Source: a virus (taxonomy: Duplodnaviria > Heunggongvirae > Uroviricota > Caudoviricetes). From it: a stretch of 14,413 bases of DNA. This document shows, piece after piece, positions 1-14,413 of this stretch. Both the position numbers and the translations under genes were made by a program. Position 1 is the stretch's first letter. Each line of letters starts with the position of its first letter. The stretch lies in the IMG/VR virus record IMGVR_UViG_2663762810_000008. The stretch is one strand, 5' to 3'. Below the pieces are notes generated by a model, which had not been told where the DNA came from, searched no databases, and saw only the letters and a program-made list of their open reading frames with translations.

Positions 1-319
1 TTGCCTCCCCCCCGTTGATGGGTAAAATAGCCGCAATTTTTCGTTTTCAACAAGCGCGGCGCGATGCCGCTTACTCAAGAAGAAAGAATTATGACGTTGT
101 CTCCTTATTTGCAAGAGGTGGCGAAGCGCCGCACTTTTGCCATTATTTCTCACCCCAATAATTAATCCCAAATTAAAGCTCTTTTACTCTTTCAAAATCC
201 TTTCAGTTAATTGAGGTCTGGTTATATAACTCATTTAAATACATATAGTTATGTGGCTTCTTTAATTGAAAATTCTTTCATGTAACTTTAAATCGATCAG
301 GTTGCTTTCATCAAAAATC

Positions 320-376
320 TGTACATATGCTTGTACATAATGTACAAAGCAGCAGAGGTGTTTTGCGATTTGTACA
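320..376. promoter_or_regulatory. Four copies of the palindromic hexamer TGTACA (320-325, 332-337, 341-346, 371-376) immediately upstream of the integrase start; candidate operator or integrase/accessory-protein binding array
   Basis: Direct: four exact TGTACA copies within 57 bp ending 10 bp before the integrase ATG at 386. Function is inference. Confidence 0.3.
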
Positions 377-385
377 AGGTGAGTA

Positions 386-1609
386 ATGGCGCTGTCTGAT
401 GCGTGGTTGCGTTCAGTCGTTGGAAAGGAACGTGATAAGGTTTTGGTTAAATCCGATCGTGATGGTCTGTCTGTCAGAGTATCACCGAAAGGTCGCGTAG
501 TGTTTCAATATCGTTATCAATGGGCAGGGAAAGGTGAGCGTCTTGATATCGGAACTTACCCGGCAACTGGATTAAAAGAGGCCAGAGAAGAAGTTATCCG
601 TCTCCGTGGTGAACTCGAGTCAAACCGTAATCCACGATTGGTCAAGCAGGCTGAAAAACGAAAAGCTACTGAAGCCATGACGGTAGAGTCTGTGATCCGT
701 GCCTGGTATGAAGCATATTGTGTAAAAAATAAAAAGGGTTCTGAACAGATACTCCGCTCGTTTGAGCTGCACCTGTTCTCTAAAATCGGGAATATCCCTC
801 ACGATGCAGCTACATTGCATGATTGGTTAGAAGTCCTGGAGCCTCTTAGCACTAAGACTCCAGCAATAGCAGACCGATTGCTAATTAACGCAAAGCAGGC
901 CCATGTCTGGGCGTATAAGAGAAAGCTTATTGAAACTCGCCCGCTGTCGGATATCACGGGTAAAGATATGGATATCCGTAAAGGTCAGAAGAAACGGTTT
1001 CTGACACACGATGAAATTAAAATTCTTTATGCTGCGATCGATGGCTCTAGAATGGTTCCCAAATACCGGGCCTTCATTAAACTATTACTGCATTTTGGTT
1101 GCCGTAGTTCGGAGCTAATTACTGCTAGGGTGGGTGATTTTGATTTCATAAATAAGGTATGGACTGTACCACCTGAACGACATAAGACAGGGGACATAAC
1201 AGGCGAACCGCTAAAGCGGCCCATTATTGAACCGGTTGAAGAGCTTATAAAATACGTTATCTCTATGAACAACGGTTCCGATATGCTTTTTACTAAGGAA
1301 GGAAGCAGGGAGCCAGTCGGTAGGACATCATTACAGTCGCTGCCTTACAATTTAATGCAGTACGCGTGGCGGCGTTTAGGATATCAATTCCCTCATTGGT
1401 CTCTTCATGACTTGAGACGGACAGCACGAACAAATTTTTCTGATCTTACTGCGCCTCATATCGCAGAAATTATGCTTGGTCATAAGCTGCCAGGGGTATG
1501 GCAAGTTTATGATAAGAGCGATTATCTAGAAGAACAGCGTAAAGCTTACCTGGCATGGTGGAAGAGGGTTGAATCGATTGTTAATTGTACTATCTCTGAT
1601 TCAAACTGA
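386..1609 (+). CDS. Tyrosine site-specific integrase, P4-like family
   Basis: 407-aa ORF with ATG start and AGGTGA ribosome-binding site upstream. N-terminal arm-binding-type region (ALSDAWLR...YRYQWAGKGERLDIGTYP), catalytic-region motifs HDLRRT and LGH, and a C-terminal tyrosine region (VWQVYDKSDY) typical of the family. Family call from motif memory, not a search. Confidence 0.9.
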   Translation: MALSDAWLRSVVGKERDKVLVKSDRDGLSVRVSPKGRVVFQYRYQWAGKGERLDIGTYPATGLKEAREEVIRLRGELESNRNPRLVKQAEKRKATEAMTVESVIRAWYEAYCVKNKKGSEQILRSFELHLFSKIGNIPHDAATLHDWLEVLEPLSTKTPAIADRLLINAKQAHVWAYKRKLIETRPLSDITGKDMDIRKGQKKRFLTHDEIKILYAAIDGSRMVPKYRAFIKLLLHFGCRSSELITARVGDFDFINKVWTVPPERHKTGDITGEPLKRPIIEPVEELIKYVISMNNGSDMLFTKEGSREPVGRTSLQSLPYNLMQYAWRRLGYQFPHWSLHDLRRTARTNFSDLTAPHIAEIMLGHKLPGVWQVYDKSDYLEEQRKAYLAWWKRVESIVNCTISDSN

Positions 1610-1894
1610 CGGTTTGTATCACCTGAACATAACCAAATCTCCTAGCACACTTTGAGCGAGATGTGAGCGTTAAGTTTACGCCATTGTGTTGACATAAGAG
1701 GGCACGGGTATAGATATCATCACTATCCCTATGCCCCTAAATCGCTCCTGCTATTTGATAAATGCAGATGTTTACCACCAAATGTTTTTGATACTATAGG
1801 TTGATTCATGATTTACCTAGAAACTTAGTTGTAACGAAAACTTCTTAACGGACACTATCTGGATAAAGTTAGTTTTTTATTTAAGAGGGTTAAC

Positions 1895-2614
1895 ATGTCA
1901 AAGTTAAAAAATGAACCATTAGTAAGGGTATCAGAAGAAGACGGAATAGAAATAAGGAAGATCCAATATCCAGATAATACGATAGAAAGAGTTTATAAGC
2001 AGAAAGGTGTAATATTACCACGAATACCTTTAAAAGGCCGCTTTGTAGAACAATATGTGGCCTTACAGTTGCTGGATAAAGATCTTCGGAATGTTATTGG
2101 TTGGGAGAATATAATAAAAAACATTTGTAATAACATTAATAGAGAACAACACTTTATTTATCCTGATTTAGAAAAGAATCTAATATTAAAGTCTTTATTT
2201 ATATCAAAAGTTGTTACTTACGGTAAGTGTTTTACAGAGGCGAAAGGGCGTCGATTCACATTGCAGAGAAAGCATGTGCCAGAAAAATACAGAGATTTAC
2301 ATGATTCTATTATGAATGTTAGACATAACTTTGCTGCCCATAAAGGTGAATTTGAATATGATCAATGTGGCTTGGTTTTAATATTGCCGGGGACCAAGAA
2401 AAAAAGGTGCTATCATATTTTTTCAGAACTCAATCAAATAAATTATGGTAATAATGAGGAAGATGATGAACGTTTTTTTATGTTATATGATTCACTGCGT
2501 AAAGTCATTAAAGAAAAACGAGATAAATTAATTGATAAAATATACGCTGAAAAGATTCATACTCAAACAATGGAGTATTGGTTGAGCCGAACAGGAAAAG
2601 AAACAGAGATTTAA
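1895..2614 (+). CDS. Hypothetical protein, 239 aa, AT-rich orphan gene with no family recognised; candidate accessory or defence cargo
   Basis: Clean ORF with ATG start and AGAGGG 5 nt upstream. Codon usage is visibly AT-rich (Lys/Asn/Ile/Glu-rich protein) compared with the flanking integrase and early operon. No transmembrane segment, P-loop or other motif recognised; an R-x5-H match (RHNFAAH, aa 143-149) is too degenerate to call HEPN. Confidence 0.6.
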   Translation: MSKLKNEPLVRVSEEDGIEIRKIQYPDNTIERVYKQKGVILPRIPLKGRFVEQYVALQLLDKDLRNVIGWENIIKNICNNINREQHFIYPDLEKNLILKSLFISKVVTYGKCFTEAKGRRFTLQRKHVPEKYRDLHDSIMNVRHNFAAHKGEFEYDQCGLVLILPGTKKKRCYHIFSELNQINYGNNEEDDERFFMLYDSLRKVIKEKRDKLIDKIYAEKIHTQTMEYWLSRTGKETEI

Positions 2615-2810
2615 TTTGTTCAGTATATAAAAGCTAATTTTTAAGGAGTAATTTTCAGATGATTAAAGCTGATTACATTGCGATAGGTACTCTACGACTA
2701 ACTTTTCAACAAGAGTAAGGGGGTAATCAATTTTATTTGTATCAATGGTATGACATTTCTTGGCGATAATGTTTTGATCTTATCGATTCATGTCATATGG
2801 TCATTGGTAA

Positions 2811-2842
2811 CGTCCGCTCTTGTTAAAGAGTGGACGCTCAGA
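2811..2842 (+). terminator. Candidate intrinsic terminator for the orphan-gene transcript
   Basis: Direct: 11-bp stem (2811-2821 with 2826-2836, loop GTTA) that is perfect in the plus-strand RNA through one G-U pair but has a C-A mismatch on the minus strand, followed by a moderately T-rich tail (GATTTGGTTTGG). Confidence 0.35.
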
Positions 2843-2896
2843 TTTGGTTTGGCATCTAATCATAGATGTGTCAGCTCACATCTAAGCTAATACATA

Positions 2897-3091
2897 TTAA
2901 TCAATCACTCCCGCAAATCTGTAAATCTTGTGTGATGCCCATTTATTTGGGCAGGATTTAATATCAGGATCTGGAAAGTCAGGCCTGTATTTCTGGCCAG
3001 TTCTCCTGTTTACGCTGTTCCAGCGAAGAACTGTCGATACTGAAACACCACAGAAATCGGCGACTTGTTTAGTTGTCATTAAGTTGTTCAT
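2897..3091 (-). CDS. Excisionase/AlpA-family helix-turn-helix DNA-binding protein
   Basis: 64-aa ORF; segment TTKQVADFCGVSVSTVLRW resembles excisionase/AlpA-type HTH proteins. Start ATG overlaps the upstream stop as TAATG (translational coupling). Confidence 0.65.
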   Translation of the reverse strand: MNNLMTTKQVADFCGVSVSTVLRWNSVNRRTGQKYRPDFPDPDIKSCPNKWASHKIYRFAGVID

Positions 3092-3711
3092 TACTTCACC
3101 TCCTGCGGCGGCTCCGGTAGCGGCATCCAGTGGGTTACTTTCGATGCCGGTTCTTCCCCATTGTCAGTAACTGCCCACCATTTGTTTCTCGAACAATCGT
3201 AATACCCTTCGAAGGTATCGTACTCAGTCCAGCCGTAAGACTTACCCCAACACCAAACATACTGTTTATCGTTCGGCATTCGCTCACTACAGCTTATCCA
3301 ACCATCCGGAGTTACCGGAGAGTTGCCCGACAGCTCGTTCAACTTGTAAGTCTGGCTTACAGGTTCGGCACCATTAAGCATGGCGGCGCGGCAGGCGTTC
3401 CAGCCTTCATCAAAGCCGACTATGCCATTATTTAAAGACGGACGAGCATCTGGCACCACCGGCACTGGCTTGGCTATATATAGCGGCTGAACATACCAGC
3501 CCTTTGATAACCAACTGTCAGCAATGTTTTTACTCCTCGTTATTGCCGGAATACCTAAGCCATTTTCTGAATGCAGCCATGCCACCGGCTCCTCTTCTAG
3601 CGATGCCAGAGCAATTTCATAAGCACGGCGCTCAATATCGTCTCGAACCTCTAGGCTGCTGATTCGTTCTTTGATTTCTTTAATCAGTTCTTTATTGGTA
3701 AATGTGGTCAT
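3091..3711 (-). CDS. DUF551-like prophage protein
   Basis: 206-aa ORF with C-terminal W-rich motif KWWAVTDNGEEP...THWMPLPEPP, remembered as characteristic of DUF551 (YfdS-like) prophage proteins. TAATG overlap with the upstream gene. Confidence 0.65.
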   Translation of the reverse strand: MTTFTNKELIKEIKERISSLEVRDDIERRAYEIALASLEEEPVAWLHSENGLGIPAITRSKNIADSWLSKGWYVQPLYIAKPVPVVPDARPSLNNGIVGFDEGWNACRAAMLNGAEPVSQTYKLNELSGNSPVTPDGWISCSERMPNDKQYVWCWGKSYGWTEYDTFEGYYDCSRNKWWAVTDNGEEPASKVTHWMPLPEPPQEVK

Positions 3712-4073
3712 TATGCTCCAGCCTCCGGCGCTTTTGGCATTACTGCCCAGTGAGTGATATTGAAGTTTTCAAGGTCCCCGACCTGAAATGTCCACTGCCA
3801 TTCTCCGGTTTCTTTTTGTCCCCAGGTGTACCAGAGAGAACGCCAGCCAATCAGCCAGCCTTCTCCGTTAGCATCAAATAACAGAACACTTTCATTTGCT
3901 GGTGGCAGTTCAGCTGACACTGGTATTATTTTGTTTTCCAGTGCCGCACATTTAGCTTCAAGCGCGTCGAATTTACGTACCAGGTACTCAGCATTTGTTT
4001 CGTTCACTTTCAGATCTCGCGGTACACATTTACCGCGAAGAAACCCTTCCATTTCGAAAACATTCATGCGCAT
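3711..4073 (-). CDS. Small DUF551-like paralog
   Basis: 120-aa ORF ending in ITHWAVMPKAPE, similar to the C-terminus of the adjacent gene. GGAG ribosome-binding site 8 nt upstream of the ATG at 4073; overlaps the upstream gene by 10 nt. Confidence 0.55.
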   Translation of the reverse strand: MRMNVFEMEGFLRGKCVPRDLKVNETNAEYLVRKFDALEAKCAALENKIIPVSAELPPANESVLLFDANGEGWLIGWRSLWYTWGQKETGEWQWTFQVGDLENFNITHWAVMPKAPEAGA

Positions 4074-4600
4074 TTGCGTAACTCCGATAACTCGTTAAAA
4101 CGTTCCATAAACATCCCGTAGGCATGGCTAGGTGCCAGTGGAATCACGTTGAACATCTCTGTTGCCGGGATGCCTTCCAGTACAGGCCAGAAAGAGCCAT
4201 CATCAAGCCCGAGATCGCGGCGTTCGGTTGCCAGCATGATAAGATCGGCATATTTCACGGGCGTACTCATAACTGGGGGTAACCCGTATTTCTCACGGAT
4301 TACGGCGTCAATTTTTTCTTCCATCCGTTTATAGTCAGGAAGAAGGCGTTTCAGTGGAGCGGGAATATCCTGGCAATACGCTTCTGTTGCATCATGCATT
4401 AACGCTTCAAAAGCAAATTCCTGCGGCACCAGCTGGCTGCAAAGCACCGCATGTTGGGCGACACTGTAGAAGTGAGAAAGATGACCGGCAAAGCGGCAGA
4501 TATTTGAAAGGGAAACCGCGATATCGTTAATCACGATGTCGTCTTTATTTATCTTGTCATAATAAAAATGCTTCCCGGAAAAAGTTTTAATAAATGACAT
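4064..4600 (-). CDS. HD-domain phosphohydrolase (YfdR-like 5'-deoxynucleotidase family)
   Basis: HD motif (ALMHDATEAY) plus upstream His (FAGHLSH). The track ORF begins at a GTG at 4627; the first ATG (4600, MSFIKTFSGKHFYYDK) has a GGAG site 6 nt upstream and is taken as the start (178 aa). Confidence 0.75.
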   Translation of the reverse strand: MSFIKTFSGKHFYYDKINKDDIVINDIAVSLSNICRFAGHLSHFYSVAQHAVLCSQLVPQEFAFEALMHDATEAYCQDIPAPLKRLLPDYKRMEEKIDAVIREKYGLPPVMSTPVKYADLIMLATERRDLGLDDGSFWPVLEGIPATEMFNVIPLAPSHAYGMFMERFNELSELRKCA

Positions 4601-4727
4601 TTTGTTCTCCACGTATATGCGCTGCACCGCGCTGAGTTTGGGTAAAAGGAAGCCCTCACCATCCGGTGATTATTGAGTTAATTACGTTTCCATAAATGCC
4701 CCCGCAGGGGCATTTGCAGTAATGAAA

Positions 4728-5345
4728 TCAGGCGGTGAAAGTACCAATAAAGGTTTCTACTTTGCTGTCTTTGAATTTCTCAACAAGCAGATCACGAAAT
4801 TCGTTAGCCATATCTTCCTGCACCGCTTCCAGCTGAATAATGCGCAGAACCAGTACAGGACGATCGCCAGTGATAATGCTGAGGCGTAATTTAAACGGAC
4901 GTTCTTTCAGACCTTCAAACGGAACGCATTTAATTTCAAATGCCACTGGCATAATGTCTTTGGTCTTCGCTTCGACAGATTCCATCAGGGAGCGTTTGCC
5001 GCTGAAGTCATTATCTTCAAAATCAGCGGTCTGGTTTGCTTCAATCGTGATTTTACGGACTGCCGCAGCTGCTTTTGTTGCCTGAATAGCGTCACCATTA
5101 GCATCAAAGCCCACAAGGTAGTCGGCCCAGTCTTCAATCCATTCTGCCAGTGACTTCTGGGAGTTACGCTCGCCGTTAACAGACAACAGGGCAGAGAACG
5201 GTGCTGTCTTTTTCAGTTTGAGAGTGGCGGTGTTATCTGCGTGACCTGGTTCATCAATAGTACCCAGGTTAAGTACACTGACGGCACGCATATTATCAGC
5301 ATCGATAAAGGTATTGTCCTGGATGAAAAAAGGACCCGGCTTCAT
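4728..5345 (-). CDS. DUF2303/YfdQ-like prophage early protein
   Basis: 205-aa ORF; resemblance to YfdQ-type proteins is from memory and uncertain. The 5' end lies antisense to the Q-homologous sequence, so the true start may be an internal Met (for example at 5291). Confidence 0.55.
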
Positions 5346-5561
5346 GGCGCGCCTGTTTATAAGATTTGTGGGCGTTGCAATGGAAACCGGTTTAGTCGTT
5401 TACCAACGACACTGGCGCGGTGTCATGTCCAGAAGCTGGTACCAGACCTGACTGATTATCAGTGGTACAAAGGATATGCAGATGTCATTGATAAACTGGT
5501 TACAAAGTGCTGGCAGGAAGAAGCATATGCTGAGGTGCAATTAAGAAAAGTGACGAGATAA
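5331..5561 (+). pseudogene. 5'-truncated lambda-type Q antiterminator remnant (C-terminal ~70 aa only)
   Basis: Translation [76 protein letters not shown] matches the remembered C-terminus of phage lambda Q (…ECGRCKGVGYSRMPASAAYRAVTMLIPNLTQPTWSRTVKPLYDALVVQCHKEESIADNILNAVTR). No in-frame start exists after the overlap with the opposite-strand gene. Confidence 0.6.
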
Positions 5562-5592
5562 ATGATTTTCGCCGAAGATGGCGACGTAATGC

Positions 5593-5621
5593 TTGCATTT
5601 TTCAAAAAATATGGATAAAAT
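5593..5621 (+). promoter_or_regulatory. Sigma-70-type promoter in the position of a late promoter pR'
   Basis: Direct: TTGCAT (5593-5598), 17-bp spacer, TAAAAT (5616-5621), about 30 bp downstream of the Q-remnant stop. Assignment as pR' is by position. Confidence 0.45.
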
Positions 5622-5666
5622 TTTTTCAACGATGGGCTTTATATACCCGACGTTAAGAAAAAGTAG

Positions 5667-5691
5667 AAAACCCGCTGATGAGCGGGTTTTT
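5667..5691. terminator. Intrinsic terminator hairpin in the position of tR', bidirectional in form
   Basis: Direct: AAAACCCGCT-GATG-AGCGGGTTTT; GC-rich stem (CCCGCT/AGCGGG) flanked by an A-run and a T-run, about 45 nt downstream of the predicted promoter. Confidence 0.6.
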
Positions 5692-5976
5692 GTGCTTTAA
5701 ATAGGGTAATAGAGATGTTGAATCTCATTCCGGGATTCATGTTTGTTTACTTATTATTTATCGGGTGACTTTGCCTGATGTTTAAAATGTTTTCTTCCAG
5801 TACTATGTCCCTAGATACAATGAGTCTGCATATTACATTATTAGCAGAGCTATTACGGTCAAAGTACAGCATAAGCTTTTAAAGCCAATCAACCAGTCAT
5901 CAAGACAGACGGGGTTATTCATGAAAACTCTCCATGTTTGATTCGATGGGGCCTGAAATTAAAGCTTTAATATAGC

Positions 5977-6189
5977 TCATGAAAGGTAAACATTGGCAGC
6001 TGAAGGGCCACGCAGACCATTTATCCGGCAAAATTCCACGCGTAATCCGGTGGTAATTTCTTCTGCATCGCGGAGATTGAGCGCTGAAACATGAAGCTGG
6101 ACATCGATACGACCATCGGATGGGGTGATAAGACCCTTGCCGCTTTTGCCGTCAAAGGTTTTGACAATTCCTGTCATTTTACGGGACAA
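5977..6189 (-). CDS. cspF: CspA-family cold-shock protein, CspF/CspH subtype
   Basis: Translation (M)[26 protein letters not shown]...[21 protein letters not shown] matches remembered CspF/CspH. The codon at 6189 is TTG, with an AAGGA site 7 nt upstream; the first in-frame ATG is at 6177. Divergent from cspB, as in Qin-type prophages. Confidence 0.8.
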
Positions 6190-6489
6190 AAAAATTCCTT
6201 AATACTGATAACTGGGCGCACTATACACACGTTCCTGAAGAAAGCTATAGTTTTTTGATGGGGTTGAAGATGGCTGGATGTCTAAAATAAACATTGCTTC
6301 ATATGTTCAACTATGCGTTAATGATTGCGTCGGTTTGAAGAACAGACGATATACGAAGTAGTTTACTAAAGCAGTTCTCATTTCAGGTGTTATTCACTTA
6401 TTCCTTCTTTGAGTCTCTCCAATTAAGTACGAAGTCGTTTCTGTTATACAAGCCATTTATGCCGAAAGGCTCAAGTTAAGGAATGTAGA

Positions 6490-6705
6490 ATGTCAAATAA
6501 AATGACTGGTTTAGTAAAATGGTTTAACGCTGATAAAGGTTTTGGCTTTATTTCTCCTGTTGATGGTAGTAAAGATGTGTTTGTGCATTTTTCTGCGATT
6601 CAGAATGATAATTTTCGAACCTTATTTGAAGGTCAAAAGGTTACCTTCTCTGTAGAGAGTGGTGCTAAAGGTCCTGCAGCAGCAAATGTCATAATTACTG
6701 ATTAA
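6490..6705 (+). CDS. cspB: Cold-shock protein CspB
   Basis: 71-aa translation [53 protein letters not shown]... carries the RNP1/RNP2 motifs of the cold-shock domain; AAGGAA ribosome-binding site and a long AT-rich 5' leader. Confidence 0.9.
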
Positions 6706-6986
6706 AATTCATAGTTTGTCTGTATACGATAACGAAGAAGGCTGATGCCTGAGTGGAGATACAGACAGAGTGGTGAATATTGGATCTCTTTAATAAATAG
6801 TAAGGAGGTCCAATACATGAAACAATGGCCAGCATATTTGGCAATAACTTAATCAGGAAAAGTATGCTAACCATTGTGGTGAAGTGCAGGTTTGCTGCAT
6901 GAATAGTTTTACAGCAGAAGCTAACTGCTGGCATAGCAAAACAAAGTGCGTAAGTGGATGACTCCCACAAAAAGTACCACAATATT

Positions 6987-7009
6987 AAACCCGCTCAGGC
7001 GGGTTTTTT
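6987..7009 (+). terminator. Intrinsic terminator downstream of cspB
   Basis: Direct: AAACCCGC-TCAG-GCGGGTTT followed by six T (7004-7009). Confidence 0.6.
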
Positions 7010-7068
7010 ATTATCTGCTTTAAATATGTTATTAAAATATAAAAAATACTTGTTACGAATAAAATCAA

Positions 7069-7239
7069 TCAAGCTACAGCTTTAAGATTTGTCTGGAATA
7101 CTTTGTTGCAATGAGGGCAGATCAAAAGGGCACCTTTTTGTACTCTTGAAAAACTGTGTTCTGACTCTTGGGTGCAGTTTGGGCAGGAACATTTAACGAG
7201 ATAATTACGGCGTGATTTTGAGTCTTTACGTTCTGACAT
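7069..7239 (-). CDS. Small zinc-ribbon protein (two CxxC pairs), 56 aa
   Basis: Translation MSERKDSKSRRNYLVKCSCPNCTQESEHSFSRVQKGALLICPHCNKVFQTNLKAVA has CPNC and CPHC pairs. AGGAAA site 6 nt upstream of the ATG at 7239; the longer track ORF (start 7290) has no ribosome-binding site. Confidence 0.45.
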   Translation of the reverse strand: MSERKDSKSRRNYLVKCSCPNCTQESEHSFSRVQKGALLICPHCNKVFQTNLKAVA

Positions 7240-7457
7240 AGGCTTTTCCTGTATAAATGGCCGTATACAGTACACTAAATATGAAAACATATCTCGTATT
7301 ATTATTTAATATATGATTTTCTTTTAAAATAATTACCCACATTTTTAATGTGTCTGTTTTTTAGCGCCGTTGAGAACAACGTTTGCTATAAAAACTAACC
7401 CATAGACTCCGATCTTTTCAAACATATTGCACCATCTGTGTACATCGGGGTGAGGAT

Positions 7458-7673
7458 ATGAAATCAATGGATAAGTTAACAACAGGTATCGCCTATGGCA
7501 CATCGGCTGGTAATGCTGGTTTCTGGGCATTGCAGTTACTCGATAAAGTAACTCCGTCACAGTGGGCTGCAATCGGTGTGCTGGGTAGTCTGGTTTTTGG
7601 CCTGCTGACGTATCTGACAAACCTTTATTTCAAGATTAAAGAAGACAGGCGTAAGGTTGCGAGAAGAGAGTAA
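7458..7673 (+). CDS. essQ: Phage 21 S-type pinholin (class II holin) with dual-start motif
   Basis: 71-aa translation [71 protein letters not shown] matches the remembered S21 pinholin; two hydrophobic segments; Met1-Lys-Ser-Met4 gives antiholin/holin dual starts; GAGGAT ribosome-binding site. Confidence 0.9.
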
Positions 7674-7677
7674 TCCA

Positions 7678-8229
7678 ATGACACAAGACTATGAACTGGT
7701 TGTGAAAGGAGTCCGCAATTTTGAGAATAAAGTGGCGGTAACTGTAGCCTTACGGGACAAAAAACGCTTTGACGGTGAAATTTTTGACCTGGACATCTCG
7801 CTGGACCGTGTTGAAGGTGCCGCGCTGGAGTTTTATGAGGCAGCAGCCAGAATGAGAATCAGACAGGTATTCCTGGATGTTGCTGCCGGGTTATGTGTAG
7901 GGGATGAGCAGTCGCCGGAAAAGCGCCCCATAATTTTAGAGGCGCAGAATGTGTGGATAACCTACAAAGGAAAGCTACCGGGAAGAATTACTGGTTCTCT
8001 GAAGACGCCACCGACGGCATTGCGGTCAGAAAAAGATGATATTGAATCGCCCATTGAAAAACTGGAGGGCAGCGTCGCTGATCTGAATAAAAAATTGTCG
8101 GTGCTGATCCCTTCTGAAGATGAAAAAAAACGCCGCGATGAGCAGTTTGCGGCGTTTTACGATTATTGCATTGAAGTTACTCGCAGGAATTTTGTGAAGA
8201 TTTTTGAGGAGGGTAAATCTCTTCAGTAA
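7678..8229 (+). CDS. Hypothetical protein between holin and endolysin (possibly YdfR/DUF1327-like, C-terminally extended)
   Basis: ATG at 7678, 4 nt after the holin stop (MTQDYELVVKGVRNFENKV...). The track start at 7657 overlaps the holin and is less likely. Resemblance to the small ydfR-type ORF of Qin-like lysis cassettes is from memory and not verified. Confidence 0.55.
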   Translation: MTQDYELVVKGVRNFENKVAVTVALRDKKRFDGEIFDLDISLDRVEGAALEFYEAAARMRIRQVFLDVAAGLCVGDEQSPEKRPIILEAQNVWITYKGKLPGRITGSLKTPPTALRSEKDDIESPIEKLEGSVADLNKKLSVLIPSEDEKKRRDEQFAAFYDYCIEVTRRNFVKIFEEGKSLQ

Positions 8230-8437
8230 GCTTAATGGCGGACGCTGCAATTAATTCAGGAAGGTCCGCAAGGTCATCTGTCAGTGGATATGATGAAAAA
8301 TCGGCGGCAGTTCTGTTAAGAAGCGCTTTAACTAATTCCTTTTCCTTCTCCGGCAACAAGTTGATTAGAGCTACGACTGCTTGCCTGAGTGCGATTAAAT
8401 CAGCAAAAGTTTGTTTTGGTAGATTTGTGTAATCCAT
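8177..8437 (-). CDS. Hypothetical protein, 86 aa, convergent with and overlapping the 3' end of the preceding ORF
   Basis: ORF MDYTNLPKQTFADLIALRQAVVALINLLPEKEKELVKALL... with a protein-like helical composition; fills an otherwise ~320-bp gap ahead of the endolysin. Start ATG at 8437 (track lists the GTG at 8443). No family recognised. Confidence 0.3.
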   Translation of the reverse strand: MDYTNLPKQTFADLIALRQAVVALINLLPEKEKELVKALLNRTAADFSSYPLTDDLADLPELIAASAIKLTEEIYPPQKSSQNSCE

Positions 8438-8550
8438 AGTCACCTCTGTGTTTATCAGATTGACATCCTCCTCCCGCCAGTGCCCATCACTGGTGAGGTA
8501 AGATTTAACATATCCGGGGATTTGAAGCCGATAAATCCTGATAAATATCC

Positions 8551-9578
<1,028 letters not shown>

Positions 9579-9941
9579 ATTAATATTAAATCGGATTATT
9601 TTTAGCGCTGAATGTGAAATTTAAATAAAAAGGACTCTTCCATGAGTCAAAATCCTTGAAATCTTAAGGGTAAGATAAAAGGTCATTAGACAGAATGACA
9701 CGTTTTATTAATAAATAAAGCTATTGTTTCATTCGTGTGTTTTTCTTTACAAAAGTAATCCTTGCTATGGTTGGTTAATCATGCGTTAATGGTGTTCTGG
9801 TTTGTTACAAAATTATCTGAAGCAGTCATTGTTATAATTTTATTATTTGTACCTCTTGAGATCTCCTTGTTGGTTTTTCTCTCTGATATTTTTTTTCGGA
9901 CCATTCTGCCCAAGGGCTAACTTCTTCAAAAGGTAATAATG

Positions 9942-10154
9942 ATGTCTAACAAAATGACTGGTTTAGTGAAATGGTTTAACCCTGAAAAAGGTTTTGGTTT
10001 CATCACGCCGAAAGATGGTAGCAAAGATGTGTTTGTCCATTTCTCAGTTATTCAGAGCAACGATTTCAAAACGTTAACTGAGAATCAGGAAGTCGAATTT
10101 GGTATTGAGAACGGACCTAAAGGCCCCGCGGCTGTTCATGTAGTGGCACTTTGA
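9942..10154 (+). CDS. cspI: Cold-shock protein CspI
   Basis: Translation [70 protein letters not shown] matches remembered CspI. Tandem ATGs at 9939 and 9942; long AT-rich 5' leader. Confidence 0.9.
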
Positions 10155-10358
10155 GGTAGAAAATATTACAAACCATATTCACTTTAGATGCCCGTGTTGC
10201 CATGGTTCTCAGTATAGAACATCATCTTTTGATGTTTCTGACAGGAATCCTTTCGGGGCAAAATGTATCTTTTGTAAATCAATGATGATTACATTTGATA
10301 ATATTTCACAATACTTAAATGTTAGCCGTCTGTCGTTAGATTTAAGAAAGTGAAAATG

Positions 10359-10381
10359 AAGGCTCCTTCGGGAGCTTTTTT
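10359..10381 (+). terminator. Intrinsic terminator downstream of cspI
   Basis: Direct: AAGGCTCC-TTCG-GGAGCTT stem with a UUCG tetraloop, followed by six T (10376-10381). Confidence 0.6.
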
Positions 10382-10425
10382 GCTTAGTGTCTAGTCGATG
10401 GATACTCACATATTACGGTAACATT

Positions 10426-10656
10426 ATGAAAAAAATAATAGTTTTTTTTAACTCTGAACCAGCAATGGTAGTGCCAGTGATGACCGGAGTTAACACCATC
10501 ATGCGTGAATATCCAAATGGCGAAACAACACACCTCACTGTAATGGCTGCAGGGTTTCCATCTCTGACCGGAGATCATAAAGTCATTTATGTAGCAGCGG
10601 ATCGACATGTAACTTCAGAAGAAATTCTGGAAGCAGCAATGAGACTCTTGAATTGA
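10426..10656 (+). CDS. Hypothetical small protein, 76 aa
   Basis: ORF MKKIIVFFNSEPAMVVPVMTGVNTIMREYPNGE... in the cspI-gnsB interval. The first ATG in frame is 10426 (track start 10387 is a GTG abutting the terminator T-run). No clear ribosome-binding site. Confidence 0.4.
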   Translation: MKKIIVFFNSEPAMVVPVMTGVNTIMREYPNGETTHLTVMAAGFPSLTGDHKVIYVAADRHVTSEEILEAAMRLLN

Positions 10657-10825
10657 TTTGATTCTAATGCATTGATAATAAATGATAATCATCTTTATCT
10701 GTTTGTGTGAAATTTAGACCGTCGTATGTTGATTATTGCGATGTTTCATCTTATCTTTTATACGTTTGCTCCATATAATTGACACTACTGTGTACCAGGA
10801 AAGTCATAACAGACTAAAAGAGGAA

Positions 10826-11002
10826 ATGATGAACATTGAAGAGTTAAAAACAAAAACAGAAGCAGATATTTCTGAATATATAACAAAAAAAATCATTGAG
10901 CTTAAGAAAAAGACCGGGAAAGAAGTTACCAGTATCCAGTTTACTGCACGGGAAAAAATGACTGGTCTTGAAAGCTATGATATCAAGATTGATTTAATCT
11001 AG
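10826..11002 (+). CDS. gnsB: GnsA/GnsB-family small protein
   Basis: 58-aa translation MMNIEELKTKTEADISEYITKKIIELKKKTGKEVTSIQFTAREKMTGLESYDIKIDLI matches the remembered GnsA/GnsB pattern. AAAAGAGGA ribosome-binding site; the longer track ORF is an upstream extension. Confidence 0.75.
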   Translation: MMNIEELKTKTEADISEYITKKIIELKKKTGKEVTSIQFTAREKMTGLESYDIKIDLI

Positions 11003-11067
11003 TATGTTTATAGTATTAGCATCAATTTCTCATCAGATGCTATTCAACAATACAAATTACCCATAAA

Positions 11068-11087
11068 CCTCGTTTTTACGGGGTTTT
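11068..11087 (+). terminator. Weak candidate terminator after the gnsB-like gene
   Basis: Direct: CCTCGT-TTTT-ACGGGG (6-bp stem including one G-U pair) followed by four T. Confidence 0.3.
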
Positions 11088-11297
11088 GTTATATTTAAAC
11101 ATTACCGAATAGATATAAATCTCGATTGTCGATGGTATTGGTTGTGTGACAATACCTAGTCTTTCCGGTATGCCTGAAGAGAATACAAACGACAGATTAT
11201 GTAAGGGAAACGCGCTGAAACTTTCACTCTTTCATGCTGAGTGATTTGACGTTATATTTTTAGCCGCAAGTGAAGAGCAAACGCATGGAGCGACAAA

Positions 11298-11504
11298 ATG
11301 CATAAAGATCAATACACTGATGCCCCCTCCCAGGAGCAGGTTCGTGTAAAAACTATGCTTAATAGCACCATTTCGATGGGTTACCCGGATGTTGTAATTG
11401 CATGTATAGAACATCAAGTATCTCTGGAAGCATTCAGGGCAATTGAGGCCGCGTTAGTAAAGCACGATAAGAATACGAAGGATTATTCCCTGGTGGTTGA
11501 CTGA
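11298..11504 (+). CDS. Hypothetical small prophage protein, 68 aa
   Basis: ORF with ATG start and GGAG site 8 nt upstream; lies just upstream of the cos/terminase region where small conserved ORFs sit in related cryptic prophages (recollection, uncertain). Confidence 0.5.
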
Positions 11505-11849
11505 TCACCATAACTGCTAACCATTCTGACCATTTCACAAGTGACAGAGTCAATATCGTATTCTGTCACTGTCAGGCTAATACAGTACTGCAATTCAACT
11601 ACAGCAATGCCTCGTATTTAGGTGAATTTACAATATCGTCCAGTTCGGATGCCGGCTGCATTTCTGAAGATAAGGCATTTCGGTTCGCGTATTTTCCCCT
11701 CATGCTCGTCAGTCCTGCGCGTAGTAAGAAACAGGACACTCACACTAATTTGTGTGGGCATGCTGTGATGTCCTTCTGAATTATCCCCACGCCATTATGT
11801 AAAGCTCTGTTTCAGATGCTCGTCACGGTTGTCAGGCTGTCGGGTCCTC

Positions 11850-12000
11850 CCTGGGGGGGGCCCTGCCACGGGGCGGGAGCGTCGCGGAAAAAGGCTAGTT
11901 TTTGCATTTTTATCGGCCACCATCATCTTTGCATCTTATTGATTATTAATGGTTGTTTGTTTTTTGTATGTCGAATTGAGTGTTTTTTGTTCGACATCGA
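11850..12000. other. cos-like DNA packaging site (putative cosN plus cosB-like inverted elements) upstream of the small terminase
   Basis: CCACGGGGCGGGAGCGTCGCGG (about 11866-11887) resembles the lambda cosN neighbourhood (ACGGGGCGGCGACCTCGCGGG, from memory). G8 run at 11853-11860. Inverted elements ATGTCGAA (11968-11975) and TTCGACAT (11990-11997) parallel the oppositely oriented R3/R2 sites of lambda cosB. Confidence 0.4.
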
Positions 12001-12056
12001 ACGCGTTTTCTTAAAGTTGTTCGCACGATGCATGTTTAAAGCTCTCCGGAGGAAAT

Positions 12057-12548
12057 ATGGATCATGAGTTGAAAAACCTGGTGCTGAATATTAATCAACT
12101 GGCGGCTTTATCTGGTCTGCACCGCCAGACTGTCGTGGCAAGACTGAAAAACATTCGTCCCGCTGGTGGACATGACAAACTCAAGCTATACCGGTTGACC
12201 GATATTCTGACTGAATTTATGGGGTTACCACCGCCGGTTGCTGAGGGCGAAATGGATCCACATGAACGCAAAGCCTGGTATCAGTCTGAACGTGAGCGTC
12301 TTAAGTTCGAACAGGAAACGGCACAACTCATTCCGGCCAGTGATGTCAGACGGGAGTTTGCCATCTGGGCAAAAGCGGTCGTGCAGGTGCTGGAGACATT
12401 ACCGGATATTCTGGAACGTGACTGCGGCCTGCAGCCTGCCGCTGTGAGCCGTGTTCAGTCCATTATTGATGATCTGCGCGATCAGATAGCCCTGCGGGTG
12501 ACCGAAGCAGGTGCGGATGATGAGGAGGAATTACAGCAGGAGGAGTAA
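12057..12548 (+). CDS. Terminase small subunit, Nu1-like
   Basis: 163-aa ORF with N-terminal HTH-like segment (LVLNINQLAALSGLHRQTVVARLKN) and acidic C-terminus; GGAGGA ribosome-binding site; stop overlaps the large-subunit start as TAATG; located just downstream of the cos-like site. Confidence 0.8.
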   Translation: MDHELKNLVLNINQLAALSGLHRQTVVARLKNIRPAGGHDKLKLYRLTDILTEFMGLPPPVAEGEMDPHERKAWYQSERERLKFEQETAQLIPASDVRREFAIWAKAVVQVLETLPDILERDCGLQPAAVSRVQSIIDDLRDQIALRVTEAGADDEEELQQEE

Positions 12549-14170
12549 TGCTGAATCAGGAAACCGCAAAGGCAGCACGAACCGATTCAGGTTATATCCT
12601 TCGCGCACCGAGACGAATGCGGGTTGCTGATGCCGTTGCTCAGTATATGCGGGTGCCCATGGGGGCCGGGAACTCAGTCCCGTGGGATCCGCTGGTGGCA
12701 CCGTATGTTATTGAGCCGATGAACTGCCTGGCCTCGCGTGAATACGACGCAGTGATATTTGTTGGCCCGGCACGAACTGGCAAGACTATCGGCCTGATTG
12801 ACGGCTGGGTGATTTACAACGTGATTTGCGATCCTGCTGATATGCTGATCATTCAGATGACGGAGGAAAAAGCCCGCGAACACTCCAAAAAACGACTTGC
12901 CAGAACGTTTCGCGTCAGCCCGGAAGTGGTCAGTCGCCTGAGTCCGAACAAAAATGACAACAACGTTTATGACAGAACATTCCTTGCTGGCAACTACCTG
13001 AAAATCGGCTGGCCGTCAGTCAATATCATGTCCTCATCAGATTATAAATGCGTGGCGCTGACGGATTATGACCGTTTTCCGGAAGATATTGATGGCGAGG
13101 GGGATGCCTTCTCTCTTGCCTCAAAACGTACCACCACATTTATGTCCAGTGGTATGACGCTGGTGGAGAGTTCCCCCGGCAGGGATGTGAAGGATGTGAA
13201 ATGGCGACGGACTTCACCGCATGAGGCTCCACCAACCACGGGGATACTGTCGCTCTATAACCGTGGCGATCGCCGTCGCTGGTACTGGCCCTGTCCACAC
13301 TGTGGTGAGTATTTTCAGCCCTGCGGCGATGTGGTTGCTGGTTTCCGTGATATTGCCGATCCCGTGCTGGCAAGTGAGGCGGCTTATATTCAGTGTCCTT
13401 CCTGTTCAGGACGGATTATGCCTGAACAAAAACGTGAGCTGAACGGACGTGGGGTCTGGTTGCGGGATGGTGAATCCATCAATGCGGATGGCAGTCGTTA
13501 TGGTGATCCCCGACGCTCACGTATTGCGTCATTCTGGATGGAGGGTCCGGCAGCTGCTTACCAGACACTCTCGCAACTCGTTTACAAACTGCTTGCTGCA
13601 GAACAGGAATACGAGACAACCGGAAGTGAAGAAACACTCAAGACGGTTATCAATACCGACTGGGGATTACCTTATCTTCCCCGTGCCAGCATGGAGCAAC
13701 GAAAAAGTGAACTGCTTGAGCAGCGGGCAGAGCCAGTTCCTTCCCGCAGTGTGCCGGATGGCGTTAATTTCCTGGTGGCGACAGTTGATGTGCAGGCGGG
13801 ACGTCATCGCCGTTTTGTGGTTCAGGTAACGGGCTATGGCAGCCGTGGCGAACGCTGGATTATTGATCGTTACAACATCACGCAGTCATTGCGCGGTGAC
13901 AGCGACGGGGAGAGCCAGCGAATTGATCCGGCCAGCTATCCGGAAGACTGGGATGTCCTGCTGACGGATGTTTTTCATAAAAGCTGGCCGCTGGCCTCCG
14001 ATCCTTCTCAACAAATGCGACTGATGGCAATGGCGGTGGACTCCGGCGGTGAAGACGGAGTCACTGATAATGCCTATAAATTCTGGCGTCGTTGCCGTCG
14101 TGATGGCCTTGGTAAACGTATTTACCTGTTTAAGGGCGACAGCATCCGGCGCGCAAAACTGATCACCCGT
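12548..14170 (+). pseudogene. Terminase large subunit (lambda gpA family), truncated after about 541 codons
   Basis: Manual translation from the ATG at 12548 shows no stop through the window end, which is why it is absent from the ORF track. Walker A (GPARTGKT), CPHCG zinc-finger-like motif, and blocks matching remembered lambda gpA (VATVDVQ...RWIIDRYNI; AVDSGGEDG...LFKGDS). The 3' boundary is approximate (plus or minus about 15 bp). Confidence 0.75.
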
Positions 14171-14413
14171 ATACGCGTGAATGAATGGTTCAGCGCGTAT
14201 GCGATGGCGGGTGTGGCTTACAGCCGTGTGTCGACTTTCTCCGGGGATTATCTCCGCGTAACTGACAACAAGGGGAAAACGCACGATGTGCTGACCGGAA
14301 GTGATGACGGTCGCCACAGCAACACGTCTCTGGCGTGGGGGGCTGGCGTGCAGTTTAACCCGACCGAATCCGTGGCCATTGATATTGCTTATGAAGGCTC
14401 CGGCAGTGGTGAC
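14171..14413 (+). pseudogene. lom: 3' fragment of a lom/ail/ompX-family outer-membrane protein gene, fused in frame to the truncated terminase; runs off the window end
   Basis: Translation VNEWFSAYAMAGVAYSRVSTFSGDYLRVTDNKGKTHDVLTGSDDGRHSNTSLAWGAGVQFNPTESVAIDIAYEGSGSGD carries the Ail/Lom/OmpX C-terminal signature (compare OmpX GAGLQFNPMENVALDFSYEQSR). No signal peptide or N-terminal strands are present. Confidence 0.7.

Follow-up and report, generated by a model that had tools for sequence, protein, structure and literature searches.

A truncated Qin-type Q gene beside a retained late promoter and terminator in a decayed prophage of Escherichia coli

The DNA considered here (14,413 nucleotides, IMG/VR virus record IMGVR_UViG_2663762810_000008; this whole stretch is referred to below as the window) is what remains, after heavy decay, of a Qin-like lambdoid prophage of E. 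coli integrated beside yjjG. A tRNA scan of the window returned no tRNA, so the element is not integrated at a tRNA within it. The genes and signals around the late control region are the following, with positions counted from the first nucleotide of the window.

4728-5305, minus strand: remnant of yfdQ (DUF2303), codons ~82-274 (Pfam PF10065, E 6e-66, match confined to profile positions 77-269 of 269)
5306-5310, no strand: deletion junction with one copy of the microhomology TAAAG, a pentamer present at 5800-5804 and 8852-8856 of the Z0117EC0005 locus (L002)
5307-5561, plus strand: remnant of a Q gene of YdfT/QuuQ type, Q-lambda family, comprising YdfT residues 167-250 and the stop codon (PF03589, alignment to lambda Q, identity with CFT073)
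5593-5621, plus strand: PR'-type late promoter, with -35 TTGCAT at 5593-5598, a 17-nt spacer at 5599-5615 and -10 TAAAAT at 5616-5621 (lambda PR' layout, conservation)
5628-5636, plus strand: sigma-dependent pause element AACGAT(GGG), identical to lambda AACGATGGG and placed 6 nt after the -10 in both
5667-5698, plus strand: tR'-type intrinsic terminator, stem 5667-5676/5681-5690, loop GATG, U-tract from 5687
5833-5922, minus strand: ynfS, a 29-aa small protein gene convergent on the terminator (translation compared with K-12 YnfS, PMC6001520; Pfam PF23697 on an identical contig)
5977-6189, minus strand: cspF, convergent with PR'
6329-6768, plus strand: cspB (CDS 6490-6705) with its own cspA-type thermoregulator 5' UTR (Rfam RF01766, 156.5 bits; CSD domain)
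7458-9578, plus strand: lysis cassette with intact ORFs (ORFs, Pfam families on the identical contig, annotation of homologous loci), made up of the next four genes
7458-7673, plus strand: essQ, holin
7678-8229, plus strand: ydfR-like gene
8551-9084, plus strand: rrrQ, lysozyme
9081-9578, plus strand: rzpQ

The plus-strand frame ending at 5561 had been proposed in the initial annotation to be the C-terminus of a lambda-Q-like protein, and the alignment to Q proteins suggested there as a check proved significant. The 84 residues encoded from 5307 match the Pfam family PF03589 "Antitermination protein Q" with an E-value of 1.7e-25 (profile positions 12-87 of 87) and, by BLASTP, align ungapped with residues 125-207 of lambda Q at 40% identity (E 9e-18). 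The remnant is longer than the roughly 70 codons first estimated, as it spans 84 codons corresponding to YdfT 167-250, and its DNA matches the 3' end of ydfT in CFT073, where the gene is intact, at 100% identity. Judged by its sequence, it belongs to the YdfT/QuuQ (Qin-type) proteins and not to lambda Q proper. The parental YdfT is a protein of 250 aa, of which codons 1-166 are deleted here; the full-length protein aligns to lambda Q over the N-terminal 120 and the C-terminal 92 residues (PDB 7UBM, E 1.4e-36) and also matches the lambda Q structure 4MO1 over both halves.

Full-length YdfT-type Q, as encoded by CFT073 ydfT (5504-6256 of locus L001), carries four CxxCxGxG motifs (Pfam DnaJ_CXXCXGXG, E 6.8e-8) and has an extra insert of ~40 aa relative to lambda Q. 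The "arm" of YdfT may thus be a DnaJ-like two-zinc module instead of the single zinc ribbon of lambda.

Using megablast against 5,426 complete E. coli genomes, we placed the break in homology at 5305/5306. The right side (5306-14171) is 99.8-100% identical to prophages that have a full-length 250-aa ydfT, such as that of CFT073, in which the match begins at ydfT codon 166/167. The left side (1-5310) is 99.5% identical to the prophage beside yjjG in E. coli Z0117EC0005, a locus where yfdQ (274 aa) and ydfT are both full length and compared with which 3,052 bp are missing from the window. The lost DNA comprises codons 1-81 of the minus-strand gene yfdQ, the gene yfdP, the intergenic region with the presumed leftward and rightward early promoters, the genes for a LexA-family cI-like repressor (ymfK) and a YdaS/cro-like protein, a DUF968 remnant, and the first 166 codons of ydfT. 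The endpoints of the deletion lie inside yfdQ and ydfT, so that both genes are 5'-truncated and fused head-to-head. A single illegitimate-recombination deletion between the two TAAAG pentamers accounts for the junction. The converse polarity, in which the shorter arrangement is ancestral and the other genomes have gained an insertion, was rejected, since the genes on both sides fall short of their Pfam profiles.

The initial annotation had the 5' part of Q replaced by the start of the opposite-strand early operon. The replacement itself is borne out, but the partner is the interior of the leftward early gene yfdQ, whose first 81 codons and promoter are among the lost DNA. The 205-aa ORF called at 4728-5345 on the minus strand starts inside antisense Q sequence, which supplies the ATG and the first 13 codons, and this "DUF2303 protein" is therefore a chimeric deletion artefact. 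A minus-strand promoter-like match (AGGACA-17-GATAAT, 5320-5292) crosses the junction and lies downstream of the ATG of the chimeric ORF.

The junction was found in none of the 5,426 complete RefSeq E. coli genomes, and a search for its exact 43-nt sequence in GTDB contigs gave 0 matches, although this collection holds one genome per species and is uninformative for a strain-level allele. Such absence is what would be seen if the junction were an assembly or chimera artefact and not a biological deletion. An exact look-up of the fused ORF, however, recovered it from a 4.98-Mb NCBI contig (GCA_900448675.1, UGAU01000003.1) that is 100% identical to window positions 1-13345, and from contigs of four other, independently assembled sequencing runs, three of them 100% identical across the junction and the fourth 99.95%. 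As five independent assemblies carry the fused ORF, and as a 5-bp microhomology is typical of illegitimate recombination, we give the artefact explanation next to no credence: the junction is a genuine, rare, strain-level allele.

The consequences of the deletion for Q can be read against the structure of the lambda protein, in which residues 1-44 form a torus, or nozzle, in the RNA-exit channel that is required for antitermination, residues 61-113 and 153-207 form a four-helix body (H1, H2, H4, H5) with H4-H5 as the DNA-binding helix-turn-helix, and residues 114-152 form a zinc-ribbon arm (PMC9388147). Of these parts, the remnant has counterparts only of H4-H5 and of the arm's distal half: the C-terminal helix-turn-helix region and the last CxxC motif are retained, and the torus-homologous segment, helices H1-H2 and three of the four CxxCxGxG motifs of the parental YdfT are lost. 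No intact upstream start, which the initial annotation had named as an observation that would speak against it, came to light, the plus frame 5' of 5305/5306 being antisense yfdQ. The Q-derived 84 residues contain no Met at all, and the early promoter that fed Q has gone with the deleted cI/cro promoter region. With 166 of 250 codons lost, and with them the start codon, the early promoter, the torus N-terminus and all but one of the CxxC motifs, the earlier claim that no functional Q can be made is well supported by the sequence; the remnant cannot antiterminate, and what is left of Q is an unexpressed pseudogene fragment.

The only in-frame start upstream of the Q-derived residues is a GTG at 5241, inside antisense yfdQ, which opens a frame of 106 aa (5241-5561). 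Because this frame is open and retains the region homologous to the DNA-binding H4-H5 of lambda Q, one can imagine a chimeric helix-turn-helix peptide that would bind the Q-binding element and either modulate PR' or block an incoming Q. Its first 22 codons are antisense yfdQ, however, no known promoter lies upstream since all the early promoters are deleted, and the gene callers run on the identical contig left the ORF uncalled. Stable folding is moreover unlikely for a peptide with just one of the four CxxC motifs and half of the four-helix bundle. We regard a function for this peptide as very improbable and keep to the reading of the fragment as a pseudogene.

The late promoter starts 32 nt past the Q stop codon and is in register with the lambda PR' hexamers. 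It had been described as near-consensus, which overstates it: the hexamers and their 17-nt spacing are indeed present, but the match to consensus is 3/6 in the -35 and 5/6 in the -10 (8/12 in total), and a generic promoter scan did not report it, as can be explained by a -35 with only three consensus positions. The case for the promoter consequently rests on its lambda PR'-like layout and on its conservation in relatives. As to layout, lambda PR' reads TTGACT-17-TAAATT-TGACTC-AACGATGGG and the window TTGCAT-17-TAAAAT-TTTTTC-AACGATGGG, that is, with the same order and distances; the combination TAAAAT-N6-AACGAT occurs once in the window against 0.10 expected by chance. By register with the lambda PR' start site, we take +1 to be at 5628, so that AACGAT would occupy +1 to +6.

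As to conservation, we aligned seven modules (K-12 Qin and five other strains) that are ~88-100% identical overall. All seven agree in the -35, in nucleotides 1-12 of the spacer and in AACGATGGGCTTT, while the -10 varies between TAAAAT, TAAGAT and TAGGAT; the pause element, too, is invariant in the relatives. The spacer segment TTTTCAAAAAA(T) is the same across the relatives, and 11 of the 17 spacer positions equal the lambda spacer when compared by eye. From this pattern, the first 12 spacer nucleotides are likely to be the Q-binding element and are treated here as a candidate for it. The PR'-tR' cassette as a whole is 100% identical to the copy beside the full-length ydfT of CFT073, and this identity, together with the pause element and a covarying terminator, upholds the earlier statement that the downstream promoter and terminator are intact. 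The invariant -35, spacer and AACGATGGGCTTT and the covarying terminator give a clean sequence definition of a Qin-type PR', pause element and tR', one that could guide work on Q specificity or on PR'-derived small RNAs in E. coli cryptic prophages.

The strong hairpin with a T-run noted earlier at the end of this cassette was confirmed. It consists of AAAACCCGCT-GATG-AGCGGGTTTT followed by TTTTTG (5667-5691), with a 10-bp stem at 5667-5690, and the 73-nt transcript folds at -27.8 kcal/mol (z -6.0). The relatives have different hairpin sequences in which the pairing is kept, four stem pairs being changed on both sides in a compensatory manner. Read on the minus strand, the hairpin is scored as a terminator too and probably also ends the convergent cspF-ynfS unit; because it is bidirectional, its retention need not reflect PR' function. 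With +1 at 5628, the terminated RNA is predicted, by analogy with lambda, to be ~64 nt long (5628 to ~5692).

A second terminator-like hairpin, TGAATCTCATTCCGGGATTCA with a T-rich tail, is found at 5719-5739 on the plus strand, ~30 nt beyond tR'; it could be a chance match or act as a back-up terminator.

The existence of a promoter and terminator without their Q raises the question of whether the short RNA itself is the reason for their retention. Short PR'-derived RNAs as regulators are an established idea, with StxS of Stx phages, lambda 6S RNA and IsrK of Gifsy-1 as precedents, and such RNAs have been proposed to constitute a common class (PMC7547250); like these, the RNA predicted here would be a short transcript running from an antitermination-controlled late promoter to tR'. 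An orphan cassette kept for a constitutive ~64-nt regulatory RNA would also fit with the A-rich stretch that precedes the strong terminator hairpin in the predicted transcript, and with the 100% identity of the cassette to copies in many strains. The A-rich stretch, however, is explained as the complement of the U-tract of the leftward terminator, and what is conserved across the diverged modules is mainly the promoter, the pause element and the ~13 nucleotides transcribed first, beyond which changes are scattered as far as ~+25; these are the parts that Q loading alone requires, and the middle of the RNA varies freely. The predicted RNA has no sequence or structure match to these precedents, and neither a gathering-threshold scan of the window nor an E-value scan of 5500-5800 assigned it to an Rfam family; matches to Phe_leader, STnc370 and isrK stayed far below threshold (isrK at 12.7 bits, where the threshold is 50) and are due to the terminator hairpin. 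In addition, only a few strains have the deletion and it seems to be recent, so that no selection is needed to explain why the cassette is still there. For these reasons we hold retention of the cassette for a regulatory RNA to be quite unlikely. As the conserved positions are those of Q loading and the RNA body is variable, nothing singles out the predicted ~64-nt RNA as a regulator. In the literature on ydfT/quuQ or the Qin PR' transcript, we found only the ynfS small-protein paper and the general StxS precedent, and nothing specific to the cassette.

Beyond the terminator, the late region contains cspF, cspB and cspI, cold-shock morons that are independent transcription units embedded in it. 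cspI provides the second cspA-type thermoregulator match of the window (9795-10200, plus strand, 116.8 bits), and both matches span the 5' UTR and the coding region. ynfU lies downstream of cspB, before the lysis cassette. The earlier expectation that the csp and lysis genes would be left on their own promoters is thus sustained for cspB and cspI, which have their own cspA-type 5' UTRs, but for the lysis genes no evidence of such promoters was found.

The ydfR-like DUF1327 ORF (7678-8229) is open in the window, with 183 aa called on the identical contig. RefSeq describes the gene as a truncated pseudogene in CFT073, Z0117EC0005 and Z142-6, and K-12 ydfR is shorter.

By analogy with lambda, RNA polymerase would start at ~5628, pause, and terminate at ~5692. 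If transcription from PR' ends at tR' when Q is missing, essQ-rrrQ-rzpQ would stay silent from this promoter unless another prophage supplied a cognate YdfT-type Q. YdfT-type Q modules are present in 2,472 of the 5,426 complete E. coli genomes (~45%), nearly always in full length. Because this type of Q is common in E. coli, and because the stretch that runs from the -35 to the end of the pause element is identical in K-12 Qin, a co-resident prophage could plausibly, in principle, activate the cassette in trans. With its lysis genes intact behind a Q-responsive promoter and no Q at the locus, the element would be a natural substrate for tests of cross-prophage trans-activation. We consider the account as a whole very likely to be correct: a deletion between TAAAG repeats beheaded Q and removed the control region, PR', the pause element and tR' were left untouched, and late transcription would need a Q provided in trans. 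That the Q-less cassette is more than debris, its ~64-nt RNA having been co-opted as a StxS-like regulator or its lysis genes forming a "listening" module, seems unlikely to us; were the listening version true, intact holin, lysozyme and spanin genes would fire only on YdfT-type Q from a co-resident or incoming phage.

The arrangement can be compared with several known systems. It shares with the Q/PR'/6S RNA/tR' system of lambda the order of Q gene, promoter, pause element, intrinsic terminator and lysis genes, the AACGATGGG element at the same distance from the -10, and the protein family PF03589 with 40% identity in the retained part. It differs from lambda in that Q residues 1-166 are missing, in the promoter hexamers (TTGCAT/TAAAAT here, TTGACT/TAAATT in lambda) and in the spacer that holds the candidate Q-binding element, in the length of the predicted terminated RNA (~64 nt against 194 nt), in the cold-shock morons placed between the terminator and the holin gene, and in the four CxxCxGxG motifs of the parental YdfT, as against the single zinc ribbon of lambda Q. 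K-12 Qin has, rightward of the junction, the same gene order (ydfT/quuQ-ynfS-cspF-cspB-ynfU-essQ-ydfR-rrrQ-rzpQ-cspI) and a region ~90% identical overall, with full identity from the -35 through the pause element; its ydfT, however, is full length and it occupies another chromosomal site, whereas in the window the element adjoins yjjG and lacks both its immunity region and the 5' two-thirds of Q.

A truncated Q with a retained PR' is already known elsewhere in E. coli prophages. E. coli SCU-116, for instance, has an N-terminally truncated gene of the Q-lambda family, listed by RefSeq as an "incomplete" pseudogene, and has kept PR'/tR'. By contrast with the microhomology deletion seen here, its breakpoint is a different one and an IS3-family transposase gene lies immediately upstream, which suggests that the truncation of Q in SCU-116 is IS-associated. 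The biology of the locus is ordinary prophage decay, in which a textbook Q/PR'/tR' cassette of the Qin type has been disabled by deletion, and it has little importance beyond correct annotation as a ydfT (Q) pseudogene lying head-to-head with a yfdQ pseudogene.

Other signs of decay were noticed in the same element and its relatives. Z0117EC0005, the closest fuller relative, is itself already defective: its cro-like gene runs straight into the DUF968 remnant (L002 7908-8341), and replication genes that are present in CFT073 are missing from its locus. The prophage of the window appears to have arisen in a second step of decay, from an element at the yjjG site that was already crippled. A second internal deletion is found within 12548-14413, with a junction at 14171/14174, where the gene for the terminase large subunit is fused in frame to lom (Ail/Lom). 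On the identical contig, the fusion product is a protein of 636 aa with GpA_ATPase, GpA_nuclease and Ail_Lom domains; ~2.5 kb are gone at this junction by comparison with strain Z142-6, and all head and tail genes by comparison with an intact phage.
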